This document shows positions 28,418 through 53,000 of a DNA stretch of 64,000 nt, piece by piece (positions within the stretch are counted from its first letter, which is position 1; every line of letters starts with the position of its first letter). The notes beneath the pieces are model-generated. The model was not told where the DNA came from, did no database searches, and saw only the letters and a list, made by a program, of their open reading frames with translations. Location of the stretch: the NCBI GenBank assembly GCA_000165425.1, contig CT868025.1:186001-250000 (forward strand). The letters are read 5' to 3'. Made by a program: the position numbers and the translations under genes. The stretch is from Paramecium tetraurelia. Taxonomy: Eukaryota.

Positions 28418-29680
28418 ATGGAAACAGTTTCTTAACAAATAAAACAATTGAATCAGAAAAATCAAGAACTCTCAGTGTTAGAAAACAGAATAGTCTAATT
28501 GAAATAATAATTGAATTTGCAATAAGCAAACAATAATATCTTGAAAACTAAAGTAGATAAGATAGTTCACTCCAAAAAACAAAAGTTTTATGATCAAATG
28601 AAGGTAACTTCATTACTAACAGAATTTAGTTGAACCAAATACTCCAGGATAATGCTGTAAATAATGACTAAGCTTAATATATGATTCAAAGAAATAAAGT
28701 GTTATTGAATGAAGAACTAAGACAAACTAAATAGGATATGTTGGAAGAAAAGTATCTTCAAACCTAATAGATGAAATAAAAATTGGATTTAGACATGCTT
28801 ATTAACTAAAAAAAAAGAGATCAATAGCTATTAGAGAAGTAGTAATAATATGCAAAAGTACTCAAATCATTTTATTTGATTAGATTTCAGAGTGGGAATT
28901 TAATCTTAAACTTGATTTAAAATAAAGACAGATAGATAAAATTGACAGAATCAGATCAGAAGAAAAGGAGTTCAAAGAACAATTAGCAAAAAGAATATTA
29001 GAATAACATCAGCTATGTGAATAATTGACCAATCAAGAATAACGATTGTTAAGGTATCTTTTATTTGCAACTTATGAAGCAAATTAAAACATTCGCAATA
29101 GTTCGGAACCTCACTTAAAAATGATCTAACAACTGCAATGCATTTAAGTATAAAGGAGTATAAAAATAATATGTCTGTGTCAATGCCCACTCATGTTAAA
29201 TCTTACAGTTCTTCCAAATTACCAAAGGAACAATAACGTAGTCCTTATGCCCAATTGCCTACTATGCTCATGATGAAAATAAATGGATAAATCAATAAGA
29301 GCTAAAATGAAAACTCTTTTTTTCGTGAAAATATTATGAAAGGGTATCAATTTTCTTTGCCTTCTCTTTGTAAGCCTTCCTTTACAGAATAGTAACAACA
29401 AGTCGAACGGCTTTATTAATCCAAAACAGTGAAGAATAGTAAGTCAGATTTGCAGTAGATACTGAATTATTGTGATTCTACAGGTAAAATAGAACAGAAA
29501 TAAAAACATCGTATGAATTAAAGCGAAATATTGAAAAACTAGGCGAGTACTTATTCGATAAAGGAAAATAAATAGAACTAACAAGAGTAAGAGTAAAGTA
29601 AATAGTAATAATCAGAAGAAATGAAAATTAATAAGGATGAAGAAATATCGAATCAGAATTAATAAGAAGAATAACAATGA
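28418..29680 (+). CDS. Hypothetical coiled-coil protein
   Basis: METVSQQIKQLNQKNQELSVLENRIVQLK...; short introns; TGA 29678-29680. Confidence 0.65.
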
Positions 29681-29738
29681 TGATATGTATTTATTAAAAT
29701 TTTAATAAAATTTTATAACAGATTTTAAATCATTAAAA

Positions 29739-29800
29739 GATCCTATATTTAAATCAGAGTCCAACTATAATATTTAAGAAGGATTCTTCATTTTAGGTCT
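29739..29800 (-). promoter_or_regulatory. SECIS element in the SelW 3' UTR
   Basis: Minus strand: CCTAAA-ATGAA-GAATCCTTCT-TAAATATTAT-AGTTGGACTC-TGAT-TTAAATATAGG. AUGA...GA quartet (29791-29788 / 29756-29753), imperfect helix II GAATCC/GGACTC, apical AAA, lower helix CCTA/TAGG. Confidence 0.85.
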
Positions 29801-29835
29801 TGAGATGATCTAAAACGACATGGTTATGTATTCTT

Positions 29836-30179
29836 TCAATTTTCAATAAAATTGACAAGCTTTTTCATAGCTTTCTCTGCTGAAAATGCTCCGAAAGGAC
29901 CATCTCCACGTAATTTAGAGTGAATTAGTTCAGATTTAGAATCCTTTCTAGTCACGGTTATTTCCATTTCTCCAGTTATTTTATCTTAGGATTTGCTTGT
30001 CACTTCAGCCTGAGGATATAATGATTTAATGTATTGTTAGGCCAAGTTGTATTGAGACCAATATCCTCATCCACCACAATAGGTGATATGAACTGGATAA
30101 TAAATGAATAGGAAATACCTTTGAATTATTTATCTTTGGAAGTTTTAAGTGTTGAGATGTTCTCTGGTAATTTGATCAT
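29836..30179 (-). CDS. SELENOW: Selenoprotein W (Rdx family) with CxxU motif; Sec encoded by TGA at 30067-30069
   Basis: MIKLPENISTLKTSKDKQFK [26-nt intron 30093-30118] VHITYCGG-TGA-GYWSQY...ITGEMEITV...LIHSKLRGDG...KKLVNFIEN*. Matches SelW motifs YCGxUGY, TGxFEV and HSKxxGDG. Confidence 0.93.
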
Positions 30180-30355
30180 GAAATAATAAATAATATCTTA
30201 TTATAATATAAATTTCACTTAAAAGTGTTAAAAAATAATGGATCAATAATAATTAAAAATAGTCCAAGAAATTTGTTAATTGTTATAAAACATTTAAAAT
30301 AGTATAGCTTTGCAAAAATGAAATATTTGTGATTTATATTGTAATGTGTAATGTA

Positions 30356-30828
30356 TCAAGCTACAAGTATGCATGCTCCTCCAACTGCTTTGATTCTTCT
30401 CTCTGCAGTTTTGCTAAAGAACTTAGCTTTGACAACGACTGGTTAATTTGGAAGTCTGCCTTTTCCTAGGACTTTGAAATAACCAGCCTTGGTGACATCG
30501 ATAACAGCAGCTTTGTCCTTTGATTTAGCATATTTTTCTCTGGTTTCATCAGTGACAAGTGACCATAATTTGTCAATATTGACTACAGGTCTGTGGAGTG
30601 TGTTTTTTTTCAAATGGAAATGTCTCATACCGGTCTAGAGGAGGAATAGGAGGAGATGGGTACTTTTTGGAAATAACCTGGATGGTATTTATTGAAATTG
30701 ATTCTATGATGTGTTAAACCTCCTGAAACACCTCTACCACTTGGATGTTTTCTGTGTTTGCCAACTCTACCGTAACCATGGCATACATGTCCTCTCATTT
30801 TTCTACACTTTCTCAATCTGCTGACCAT
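30356..30828 (-). CDS. RPL27A: 60S ribosomal protein L27a (uL15)
   Basis: [33 protein letters not shown]...YHPGYFQK [intron 30635-30663] TGMRHFH...[12 protein letters not shown]...[12 protein letters not shown]. Confidence 0.97.
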
Positions 30829-32952: not shown

Positions 32953-35900
32953 TCATTCTATTAATGAGACTCTGTCACCTAAGTTATTAAATTTATATTG
33001 GTGATAAAAGTTCAACCCTATATTCATCATATTCACACCCAAAATCTCCAAAAATGTTGTGTGTATCTACCGTAACTCCAACATGCTAGTAATTGCAATT
33101 GTTATTTATAAAATCGAATACAGCAGAGATTATCTAAGAGAATTAGCAATCTGTCTCAAAATCTCATTCTTATATTGCCATCTGCTATCCCACTTTGGAT
33201 GTTTATTCAATTTAGATGTCTGGATAATGAAGAAGACATAATTGAATCCACATGATATCCAAAAAACCGTTTTTAATAGACCAATACTCCTTTTTAAATT
33301 GCTGATATTTCGTATCAATCATAATGTAAGTCTTAAGCTATAGTAAACTATTCAATTACAGCATAATTTGAAATGCCAATAAAGAAAAAGATAGAAAGGC
33401 TAAGTCATACAGTCCTTATATTATAAATCTATCAATATAATTGGAATAATTACTTTATGATAAGAAAAATACTGATTCCATTTTCTAGGAGGGAGAAATA
33501 TGAAAAACAAATGGTTTTTGAAATGCTTGAGTAATTTAGAATCTTGATTATAATAGTGTAGAGGCAAATTAAAAATATTATTAACAAAAGACCAGGAAAA
33601 TTGTATATTACTAAGAAACTCTATTCATCAATAATTTAGTTGTTATTTTAGTTTTGATTATTATTAGTTTAATTAGTGTTGTTATAATCTGTGTAATAAT
33701 CTTGAGTAACGCATTAATTTAAATAAAGATCTAAATCTCCCTCGCATTCTAAACAAATTTCTTTCTCTAAAAATGCACAAGCTGTACATTTTCCAATTGA
33801 GCAAGGATAGCATTAGCCATTTAATGCATAATAATTGACTGGACATTCATCTACACAAGTAGAATTATACAGATATCCAACTAAACAGATTGAACATTTA
33901 TCATAACTTTCACATTCGGCACAATCATTTGAACAAGATAATGAGATAGATTACTTAAAATATCCTTATTATTGGATGTCTCCTTTATAATACGTAGTAA
34001 GTTTATATGTGAATAAATAGACATATTGATTTGGAATAGTAAAAAATCTGAATGGAATTTCTAACAAACCATTTCCTTCCATATTGATATAGACAATTTA
34101 ATTCTATTCTTGTTTACAGCCATCACAATATATTATAATATTTCCCTCATATTTTATTACATCCACCTAAAACTACAAGGCAATTCGTAATAATGCTTCT
34201 TTCATTTATATAAATTTGTTATCCATAAGTTGTATATTGGATAACTAAATTTTTTCATATTCCCAATCTTGGAACTTAGAATTGAAAATGGCTATTTAAT
34301 CTCCATTCTTATCAACTAGAATAAATTACCATTCGAGTAATTAAGGTTTAGATGGATTTAATGGTTATGAAATAAGGAGACGTAAAACTTAATGTTTTTT
34401 CATTAGAGGCAAATCATTTATTTCAGTATTGCAATCAAAGTTATTCTGTTAAAAATTCAAGAATTTACATTAAAGCTTTTACTTTATGATCAAATTAGTA
34501 GGATAATGAATTTTCAATTTATCTTATTCATTAATGTCGCAGGGTAATTCGATGCTAAATTACCATTGATTTAATGCATTTAATTCTCTTGTGGTGATTT
34601 ATGGAACAATTTGAAATTGATTTGGCTTAAAAACTAATTAATATTCGATTTAACTTTGTTAACATTCCTTTGCATATGTTGAAATTAATAATTTTGACTC
34701 CTTTGCTAATCTAGGTGTTTCTATATTAAAAATAACATCCTTATTTTTTGATAATTCTATCACTGAAAAATTTATCCTTTTGCAATTTTGGCATTTAATT
34801 TCATTTATGTTTATTGTATCATCAAAACGAAGTTAAACTATATATTAACTCTCTAAAGACACAGATAAGCTAGTCTTATCTACACTTAATAAACTGCTTA
34901 AGGATATTTATAGATTCTTGATTAATTAATTAGGTTTCTGAATTAGAACAACATCTGATAATAGTTACTCTCTAAATTGATCATTTTAATAAGCCTGTGA
35001 TTCAAATCTACTAGTTTAACATATTGTTGATGGATTTTTAATCCAATAGGTAAAACTAAATGATGATCCACTTACTATTTAACTTTCCCATTAAACCAAA
35101 TTCAATTCTTTGGGGAATTGGATATATATCACTCCATTTACGATAGGGTTTTACAATTCAATGTTTATATACAGATTTGTTTCTTCATCTACTACTTCAG
35201 TATCTCTACTAACAATAAAACTCTTATATCTATTTGGCTCAATAGAATAAATAAGATCTCCAAATAAACTTGCACTTATTTTGTTAATTAAAAATGAGAA
35301 TTTTATGTCTTGCTTATACTCTAAATTCTAAAATTAGAATTCAACCTTTAATCTAAACTGTTCTAACAATTAATCATTAAATCCAATTATAGAAATAACC
35401 TTGTCATTCTAAACAAATGATTTTTCAATATCATTTATGATTAATTTATCAATCACCAATAATATTGATAATGTAAATTACATATCTGAATTAGCAAGTA
35501 TATATTTCTAAGAGTCCAGTAGTATTTATAAGGTTGTATATTATGTCGCATAACTATTAGAGCTCACTAAAATTAAAATGAAGGATACCTTTCACTATTC
35601 TTTCTATTTCAGATGGAGCATATGCCCCAAAATTGAATTAACCTTCAGATAATTTATTGCCGCTGTTAAAAATCTTAATAGTTGCTGTGTATACCTCTAA
35701 ATTAGAAGGATATGTAAAGTTATTAATAATAAAGGAGTGCTGACTTTCATTATAAAGGAACTCCACATTTCGATTGAATACATAAATACTATTTTCTTTT
35801 GATTGGCAATCCTGTCCATTTGATAGGCCTGTGAAATTAGTGCAAGATATAAAATGACTAGTGAATACTGGGAATTCTAATTAAAATTATAAATCCTGAA

Positions 35901-50017: not shown

Positions 50018-53000
50018 TCATCTTCTCTTCTTATTTCCTCCCTTTCTGGTTGGAATTTCTGAGTCACTCGATTATTTTCTCTTTTTTTTGACTCCCTCAT
50101 CTGAGTCTGATTCACCTATAATATAATAGATATAATATGTTACCTTGATAATTTTCTTCCGCTTGAACTTGTTCTTTTTATTTTTATCCCTAAATAATAA
50201 TTCCTTGTTTCTTTAGTTCTTTAACTAAATTATTGGCATCTTCTCTTTGTAATTCAAAGTCCTTCATGATGGCATCTCTAAGAACTTATCCTTCATCTTA
50301 GGCTTGTAATCCTACCTCTTCTTGTAACACCTTCAAGAAGTTGTTCTCATTTTTAACATCGGCATTAGCCTTTTCTAATCTTTCTATGCATTATTCTAAA
50401 CTAATGATTAGACTTTGATAAAATGATAGTTTTGGTTTCAATTTATTATTGTCGTCATCCTTGATGTCATACATCTCCAAAAAGTCTGCTTGTTTTGTGA
50501 CTTAAGTGATGACCTTTTACAGAATAATATTGTTGTGATCACTGACTAATTTACAAAGGTACATTATAAATCTTTCCTATGGTCCTATGAAATCAGATTC
50601 TAAGGATCTGGATTCTAAAATATCTTTGAATTCAGACAAAGATGGATTGGATTTCTACCCAGTTATTTTATAGCTCATCATTTTAATTCCCGCACTTGCT
50701 GCTTATATTAATGAGTTTTCTTGCCATTGTTGTGTATCAAATAGATCAGGATTAAGAATTTAATCCTTTACATAATGCAAATAACAACAAATGCTAAAGT
50801 ATAATTCCAATCCCTTTTCAAAAATCCTTAAGAATTGTAAGGATGATGTTATGTAAAGCTTAAGAAAACTGGTCACAATTTACAAAGGCAACTATTGAGA
50901 ACGCAATCTAACATCGAACCACAAAAACAAAAATTAAGCTATCCAAACTTAGGGCTTCAAAATTTTATCATGAATTAATAATTTGCATAGTCCTTCCAAT
51001 GCAATAGCCTAGATCACTCCTTCAGATTTGAATGCAAATTTCATTATAATCTATAGAATCTTCTATTTTCCATATGTTTCTGAATCAATAACCCATGCCT
51101 AATCGTCATCATACATCAATAATGCATCCAAAATGCTTCTTAGAGCTGTAATGGTCATAGGATTGTCATTATTTTTCTAGGTTGGGATGGATTAATCCAA
51201 AATTCTGGCCAAAGTGGCAATGGTAGATCCTCCAACATCAATTCCAAATAATGGGATATATCCCAAACATCTGAAACTCAATTTCTTAGCCAAACAATCA
51301 TCTCCACTCTTATATTTCTCGCTAATTGTAGTGATGATTGTCTTTAATCTGATAAAAATCCTATCTTCTATTTTGGCTATATCAAATTAGTTAAACAAGG
51401 CATCCAATAAATATAGACAATGAATATCAATATTTTTGTTGTGTTATTTCATCTTATCCAATTCATTGAGTGTTTGCTATATGGCCTTTTAATTTTATTC
51501 TAGCAATTGCTCATTTAATTATAATGATTGCACATTTTGTTTCTTCTTTTTAACTAAAGCTTCCTTTTCTTATTCTAAATTTTCTCTTTCTTCTTTTCTG
51601 ACCTACAATGATTATTCTAATTATTAGATATTTTCAACTATAATCTATTTCTATAGATCTTGGATAACTTTAAATACCTACTCTGCCATTTAATCTTACG
51701 ATGATACTAGGAGTTTAATTACTTTGATTGATGGAATCATTAATTCGTAATAACTTTTTATAATAGGCATTTCAAAATGATGTTATGCAAACCATCTACT
51801 CTCTAGTTCTTAATCACTTCTATCTTCATAGATCTCATTAAACTTTTGGTTATGCAATCTTTGACAGTCTAGTTTTTTGTATTTGCTGATGAACTCAACC
51901 ATTCGATCTAATAGTCTTGTTCTTCCTATCTCTTCTTAATTGATAAGCAATTATGCTAGTTACAATAATTCATAATATTGCAATAAATCCAAATCTTAAT
52001 TAAAAATTTCAGCAAATTATGTGCCTTCTGGGAAATTGTGATCGACTATCAAATTCATTTATTATTGTAATTAGGCTTTTTACTCTTAGTTTTGAGACAT
52101 CTGACACAACACTTTAATAAATGACATTTCTGGTCCACTTGTTTAATTGCTTAAATTCCTTAATGCATCTCTGAAATAAGTTGATAATTCATCCTAATGA
52201 ACAGATTTCAATATTGCTTTCAATCCATCCAATATTGTGGAATATAATTAAGGGAATATTAAAGTTTTATCAATTTAAAATAAATTTAAAAATCTCTTCA
52301 CTGCTTCATGAATGTGATTCACTTACTCAACATTCATTGATTTTCTAGCTGATTTCTATCTTGAATCCTCCTACATTATTTAATCATCTTAGATTATTTT
52401 ACCAAAAGATTACTGTAAAAATAATTCGCATTACTCCACCACCTTCTAACTACTGTTTTTTAAACCATCATAGATCACTTAATATAAATCTAATGTTGTT
52501 AATTGAGATATGGAGAAATGATTTTTCATAAGCTTTTTGAAAACCTAAAGTCTCACATCCACGTCAGTATCTCTGATTCTAATTATTATAAATGGAAGAG
52601 TTGAATCATTTAATTCTGTGTTGGTTAATGCATCCAGTCTCAACTCCTTTTTGTCGTCCTCGCAAATAGTTCGAACCATTTCATATTTCAATGCCACTAT
52701 TGCTTATTTTAATTTATTTTATTTTCTCTCCTCAAATGCGATGTGTTATAAATAGGAACCCAATTTCACAGCCAAACCCTTCTAAGTTTTCCCTGTCTTT
52801 TATAATTTTGTATTTTTGAATAAACCTACTGTGTGATTGAGCATGTCATATGCAGTTTTCTCATCCACCAACTAATTCAATAACTAAGGGGGAATACATC
52901 TTAAGATCATAAACAGATGTCTCCCACAACATATTCTTGTAGCAAAATTTTATGAGTCCAAACCCTCTGCGAACAATTGCATTAAATAGAGAAGGAAGCT

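Follow-up and report, generated by a model that had tools for sequence, protein, structure and literature searches.

Introduction

In Tetrahymena thermophila UGA is at once the sole stop codon and the codon for selenocysteine (Sec), as reported in 2006 for six genes (Eisen 2006, PMC1557398) that comprise two GPx, three TrxR and SPS2, with the authors expecting more to be found (Coyne 2008, PMC2612030). According to these accounts the genes carry a 3' SECIS, were missed by the automatic models and had to be edited. Other ciliates likewise give this one codon several meanings: UGA is described as Cys and Sec, depending on its position, in Euplotes crassus (PMC3737529), and as Trp, stop and Sec in Condylostoma and Parduczia (PMC4967479). 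In vertebrates, a second UGA in Dio2 is reported to serve as the stop (PMC3316567). SelW is described as one of the most widespread eukaryotic selenoproteins, present in most Sec-using eukaryotes (PMC2375036). The main text of the Tetrahymena account of Coyne 2008 (PMC2612030) has 0 mentions of the term 'SelW'.

Here we examine a locus in a 64,000-nt stretch of Paramecium tetraurelia DNA (hereafter the window, to which all coordinates refer), for which a reading of the sequence by itself had proposed a selenoprotein of about 105 residues of the SelW type, with a SECIS in its 3' UTR. This proposal emerges as the best reading on the grounds of family membership, conservation of the codon, the hairpin and a spliced contig, and we consider the locus a genuine SelW gene whose product almost certainly contains selenocysteine (probability roughly 0.92). 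Unlike the threefold use of UGA in Condylostoma and Parduczia, Paramecium SelW would employ only the stop/Sec pair. The proposed use of UGA both as Sec and as the only terminator very probably holds for this mRNA but is not new, given the Tetrahymena report of 2006 and the like situation in two standard-code loci described below.

Gene structure and genomic setting

The gene lies on the minus strand and opens with an ATG at 30179-30177. With one 26-nt intron removed, it comprises a frame of 105 codons that is interrupted by a TGA at codon 29, stays open over the following 76 codons and meets another TGA at codon 106 (Table 1). Within the first 150 nt, this intron is the sole frame-keeping one of two candidates of 18-39 nt; the other, of 28 nt (30093-30066), shifts the frame. 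If introns of up to 119 nt are allowed there are nine length-compatible candidates, with RNA support for the 26-nt one only. Homology also takes in exon 1: the related protein P0033 is 43% identical to the spliced model over residues 4-40 and P0028 34% identical over residues 2-39, both alignments crossing the junction; 11 of the 35 alignments with relatives start at or before residue 15; and the models from P. primaurelia and P. octaurelia (P0003 and P0004) begin at the same Met.

The window has a GC content of 22-33% (2-kb bins), and its frames are long only if TAA and TAG are read as Gln, as exemplified by the frame at 33432-35591 (719 codons, 48 of them TAA/TAG). The SelW gene is flanked on one side by a same-strand gene whose stop lies at 30356, and on the other by a frame that converges on it and ends at 29680. 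The former (30356-30828, minus strand) we take, from its translation, to be an rpL27a-like gene; its most plausible reading has one intron of 29 nt (30663-30635) and ends in TGA. No tRNA was found in the 64-kb window.

Table 1. Coordinates of the SelW gene and its elements in the window
Feature	Position	Strand	Basis or remark
Coding portion of exon 1, ATG through base 1 of codon 21	30119..30179	-	~20-residue N-terminal extension
Intron, 26 nt, GT..AG	30093..30118	-	Absent from spliced X3 contig, present in X16 contig
Coding portion of exon 2, with the Rdx/SelW thioredoxin-like domain and the stop	29836..30092	-	Profiles, predicted structure
Cys26, first residue of the CxxU motif	30076..30078	-	C in 22/31 library matches at this column
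In-frame TGA, codon 29, inferred selenocysteine	30067..30069	-	In spliced contig; TGA in 15/15 SelW-like metagenome loci
Terminal TGA, codon 106	29836..29838	-	Relatives end within a few residues of the same point
Type I-like SECIS hairpin	29737..29801	-	Rule-based scan, shuffles; no Rfam SECIS_1 match

The encoded protein belongs to the Rdx family

A profile query consisting of exon 2 from codon 22 onward (P0001; 84 residues, U scored as C) matched the Pfam Rdx family (PF10262) with 39.3 bits (cut-off 22.6; E 7.5e-10) and the SelT/SelW/SelH family (TIGR02174) with 40.7 bits (cut-off 34.2; E 2.2e-10). The part after the TGA matches both by itself, in each case below the cut-off (TIGR02174 at E 7.1e-5); this match and the open frame bear out the original prediction that some 76 codons with SelW hallmarks continue past the TGA. 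The top sequence match in the PDB is mouse SelW (2npb, E 2e-5), with MIEN1/C17orf37 at E 0.21; Cys26-x-x-UGA29 aligns with the motif of 2npb, such that the UGA lies opposite its second motif residue. The named animal matches, like the best PDB match, are SelW; on these search scores, a place in the SelW1 subfamily as opposed to SelW2/Rdx12, SelT or SelH is a tentative assignment.

An AlphaFold2 model built from an 18-sequence alignment (mean pLDDT 95.7) displays the order strand, motif, helix, three strands and helices; the predicted fold is thioredoxin-like, and the CxxU directly follows its first strand (E2-5). In Foldseek searches with this model, ranks 1-12 were occupied by SelW-related proteins, proteins named 'putative Se binding' and structural-genomics targets (probability 0.98-1.0), with a TM score of 0.68 against mouse SelW; no match was obtained at E < 0.001. 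The Paramecium protein shares with mouse SelW and the Rdx family the CxxU after strand 1, the thioredoxin-like fold (as predicted), the HSK..GDG stretch and the small size, and its gene has a putative counterpart of their 3' UTR SECIS. It differs from SelW in being longer by about 20 residues at the N-terminus and in an insertion of 5 residues ahead of the last strand, both of which are also present in several environmental matches, and its gene differs in having one 26-nt intron and in TAA being read as Gln. Four further proteins of 175-303 aa (P0016, P0026, P0035 and P0040) display a CxxC version of the SelW-like domain C-terminal to another domain, an architecture that might represent either a fusion or a gene-calling artefact.

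A candidate SECIS hairpin and the proposed fate of the terminal UGA

The predicted hairpin with SECIS geometry in the 3' UTR was recovered, and its core is formed by AUGA (29791-29788) and UGAU (29756-29753), i.e., 29791-29787 facing 29756-29753. Helix I has its arms at 29801-29794 and 29745-29737 (-11.1 kcal/mol), helix II spans 11 in-register positions with eight canonical pairs, one A.C and two tandem U.U mismatches, and the apical loop of 10 nt presents an unpaired AAA at 29775-29773. Type I SECIS elements are described as having a UGAN/KGAW core and apical adenines (PMC3753652; Rfam RF00031), for which the window offers UGAA/UGAU preceded by A. The hairpin further has in common with them helix I, the 11-position helix II, the unpaired AAA and the location in the 3' UTR, but it differs in the three helix II mismatches, the tandem kind of which is graded down by SECISearch3 as described (PMC3753652), and in the lack of an Rfam match.

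The bare AUGA/AA/GA pattern carries no weight here, being about as frequent in the window as chance predicts (127 matches versus 122.6 expected). With structure added, by a custom-made scoring rule that was set with the site already known, the site at 29791 ranks 1 of 177 candidate triples and first of the 10 geometry-passing sites in the 64 kb (-16.0 versus -14.3 for the next); when the 150 nt after the stop are shuffled, 22 of 3000 sequences yield any candidate and 0 of 3000 score as well. Plain folding of the region gives z = -1.83, with 6 of 200 shuffles as good. Rfam SECIS_1 does not match the hairpin at E values of up to 10; across 13 related loci it gave three matches (31.4, 24.3 and 21.3 bits), all below the gathering threshold of 35, so its sensitivity is low here. 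Six weak matches at the locus to unrelated Rfam families were taken as chance. Like hairpins were found in 7 of 15 related metagenomic loci (see below), 46-64 nt past the stop and, for the six measured, 268-292 nt from the TGA; the scans returned no SECIS candidate at the other 8 of the 15, and both MAFFT alignments of the relatives' SECIS were out of register. A stem-loop just after the Sec codon is weak (-6.1 kcal/mol, no control). The second-best SECIS-like site in the window is at 50350 on the minus strand, with a score of -14.3.

The distances suggest how the two UGAs might be told apart. The SECIS lies 275 nt downstream of the Sec codon, and UGA106 is 44 nt before the core and 34 nt before helix I. 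We propose that splicing of the 26-nt intron would let the ribosome reach UGA29, where the hairpin would bind SBP2 and recruit eEFSec and Sec-tRNA for the insertion of Sec, a scheme drawn from the standard eukaryotic pathway. In Tetrahymena, eEFSec, SPS and an SBP2-like gene are listed in a survey of ciliate GPx, in which the five annotated P. tetraurelia GPx are given as having neither Sec nor SECIS (PMC7409322). At UGA106, its closeness to the hairpin core and to the mRNA end would let the release factor win; the simplest reason for termination there would be that 44 nt falls below the minimum functional UGA-SECIS distance of 51-111 nt reported for mammals (PMC3753652). This rule does not appear universal in ciliates, since their TrxR Sec codons are reported to lie shortly before the SECIS, contrary to the minimal-distance model (PMC4967479), and the SECIS itself is said to be able to set which positions take Sec (PMC3737529).

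Given the ciliate TrxR precedent, a reading is conceivable in which UGA106 is in part decoded as a second Sec, giving a selenium-dependent, 121-residue isoform with two Sec residues. The UGA of the SECIS core (29790-29788) continues the reading frame of the gene 16 codons past the stop, so that such a ribosome would lengthen the protein by 15 residues, including one Cys, stop at the core and unwind the hairpin in passing, thereby constituting a built-in feedback. We regard this as very improbable: an in-frame core is expected in one of three cases by chance, the relatives end at the point of UGA106, and the residues past the likely UGA in the related protein P0036 are unlike those of the window.

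Conservation of UGA at codon 29 among relatives

In the column of codon 29, 16 of 31 phmmer matches have W, 6 have C, 2 have a different residue and 7 are gapped; of 100 profile matches, 85 have W, 4 have C and one has G, the remaining 10 being devoid of the motif. Since W is otherwise rare in those 100 proteins (44 in 7953 residues), we infer that the W at this column is UGA as translated by gene callers using code 4.

Metagenome contigs were scanned with a two-motif pattern that leaves the codon at the Sec position free and that is biased toward TAT codons and this SelW subfamily. Of the 19 loci retrieved, 15 are SelW-like (tblastn E <= 9e-5) and represent about 11 distinct genes; TGA occupies the Sec position in 15/15 and TGG in none. 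The other four (L003, L006, L008 and L010, with the codons GGC, AAC, TAC and TCG) are chance matches (tblastn E >= 1 or none), and a pattern search from a single protein gave 305 matches with 0 confirmed; two alignments of relatives contained no stretch of sufficient conservation for a search of this kind. Locus L016, by eye, encodes the library protein P0017, whose model starts just after the TGA. Locus L001 (801-1190, plus strand) has 22% GC, many in-frame TAA/TAG codons and a TGA at the Sec position, and, like the gene in the window, ends in TGA under code 6; TAA/TAG seem to stand for Gln in its source organism. A hairpin-like stretch with AUGA, situated about 80 nt past the stop of L001, was rejected by the SECIS scan. 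Loci L002 and L014 use the standard code, have TGA at the Sec position and also end in TGA; hence two meanings of UGA in one SelW mRNA are independent of a UGA-only code. Three other SelW-like loci with TGA at the motif (L004, L015 and L018) possess a long acidic C-terminal extension, and no SECIS candidate was seen in them within 260 nt of the first stop.

On the face of the database, with 85 of 100 matches printing W, and given that some ciliates are reported to read UGA as Trp or Cys (PMC4967479; PMC3737529), UGA29 might be decoded as one of these two residues by a near-cognate tRNA in place of Sec. However, all 15 loci with readable DNA have TGA and none TGG, as befits a caller artefact; Trp cannot serve a CxxC/U motif; a SECIS would be needless; and TGA is described as the unique Paramecium stop codon (PMC5485702), with the neighboring rpL27a ending in it. 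This makes decoding as Trp or Cys very unlikely.

Transcript evidence

Four of the 24 listed sequencing runs were compared with positions 29550-30450. In X16 a single contig runs across 29666-30326 with no gap, the intron being present, and in X3 a 400-nt contig over 29749-30174 lacks exactly 26 nt at 30093, shows 0 other differences and keeps the TGA; X3 is labelled RNA by guess, and this one contig is the source of the splice. X3 is without cover in the intergenic bins 29643-29735 and 30201-30324, as RNA would give. The precise omission of the only in-frame short intron agrees with its predicted removal to give the Cys-x-x-UGA frame, and splicing that takes out the TGA, an outcome named beforehand as contrary to the prediction, was not seen, the single spliced contig retaining this codon.

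The X3 contig ends at 29749, past the SECIS core (29753); another 4 nt would bring it to the 3' arm of helix I (29745-29737). The end of a contig is not evidence for the end of the RNA: on rpL27a, X3 has a contig ending at 30333 and the poly(A) tail is at 30324, and on this account its contigs may lack some 9 nt of the RNA end. The RNA check turned out favorable as to the 26-nt intron and the cover of the core beyond 29753, whereas a transcript end ahead of the complete hairpin, also named beforehand as contrary to the prediction, is excluded in part. The SelW transcript extends at least 87 nt beyond the stop, which is twice the mean 3' UTR of 44.6 nt given for P. tetraurelia (PMC5485702).

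The runs X20 and X21 are two oligo-dT libraries from one study, of each of which a third to two-fifths was read. Their peak depths are 4.4 and 6.6 over the SelW gene versus 665 and 625 over rpL27a; the SelW mRNA is rare, at about 1% of the rpL27a depth. The reads have the same orientation on the SelW gene as on the minus-strand rpL27a. Among these 58-nt reads no splice junction was found (0 at a depth of 2 in X21), with splice forms listed from three reads upward, and none extends below the bin 29798-29828 or over the SECIS core. Across TGA29 the raw reads have no difference listed, the X21 bin 30046-30076 having a mean depth of 6. In rpL27a, three variants at 30422-30440 in about 6-14% of the RNA reads are probably reads of a paralogous copy, and a G>A at 30329 probably reflects a paralogue or another strain.

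The rarity of this mRNA and the lack of an Rfam SECIS match would be in keeping with termination at UGA29, by which the locus would be a decaying pseudogene or a substrate of nonsense-mediated decay that yields a 28-residue peptide, with the hairpin a relic or due to chance. Against this, the frame after UGA29 is open and 95-96% identical in the models of P. primaurelia and P. octaurelia, TGA is found at the family Sec position in 15/15 loci, and the hairpin is right in both geometry and position; we accordingly consider termination there highly improbable. A loss of homology past the TGA, which had been set down in advance as the observation that would count against a selenoprotein, was likewise not encountered, the homology extending downstream of codon 29.

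Paramecium gene models

The original prediction had held that gene predictors would tend to truncate the frame. The named Paramecium models show no truncation at the TGA, using instead an over-long intron or a downstream Met. The 96-aa models P0003 and P0004 (P. primaurelia and P. octaurelia) are missing the nine residues carrying the motif, whereas P0120 (P. sonneborni, representing a cluster of 7) and P0005 begin only at the downstream Met and have 43 residues. All these models are without a selenoprotein label; the species concerned presumably also have TGA at the site, and the SelW gene is apparently uncorrected in the named Paramecium models examined. In P. bursaria, two consecutively numbered SelW-like models without the CxxU stretch (P0007, KAM3129692.1, and P0019, KAM3129691.1), likewise without a selenoprotein label, probably represent selenoprotein genes that lie in tandem and were both modelled wrongly.

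Although a 53-nt intron at 30118-30066, with the same donor, keeps an open frame and reproduces P0003 and P0004 with 4 and 3 differences, and although a minor splice form in fewer than three reads would escape the listing, we dismiss as exceedingly improbable that it is real and yields a 96-residue protein stripped of the whole Cys-x-x-UGA stretch and its redox motif, as the spliced contig lacks 26 nt and not 53, the X21 bin 30046-30076 is covered at a mean depth of 6, Paramecium introns above 40 nt are called questionable (PMC5485702), the first strand and the active site would be deleted, and, of 35 relatives, 25 favor the 26-nt model by score and 10 are indifferent, in a test that the motif-bearing query leans that way.

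Function and significance

Taken as a selenoprotein W of the Rdx family, the 105-residue product of this two-exon, weakly expressed gene would probably act as a thiol/selenol redox switch, reducing the cysteines of partner proteins or forming transient bonds with them. Mammalian SELENOW is reported to bind 14-3-3 via the Sec of its CxxU (PMC8508763), from which 14-3-3 can be put forward as a tentative, rather doubtful candidate for the ciliate partner.

Paramecium is not named in the text of PMC4561486 and PMC5330540, figures and supplements aside, and the gene may already be recorded in figures or supplements, in figure 6 of PMC2375036, in subscription papers or in selenoprotein databases. 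A search of titles and abstract openings, under spellings other than SELENOW and 'selenoprotein W', found no literature naming a Paramecium SelW. SelW is reportedly among the selenoproteins listed for Euplotes by Turanov in 2009.

The principle of the dual UGA having been in print since 2006, the SelW gene is a useful annotation fix: Paramecium very probably makes selenoproteins that are hidden by the public models, in which a spurious long intron has been introduced or the start codon has been placed too far downstream. The Tetrahymena list is without SelW, and in one paper small ciliate selenoproteomes have been argued from such lists; the present locus suggests that ciliate selenoproteomes are undercounted. 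With an mRNA of about 450 nt, two UGAs and one hairpin, the gene would also represent a compact natural reporter, in an organism in which RNAi and transformation are usable, for the choice between Sec insertion and release.
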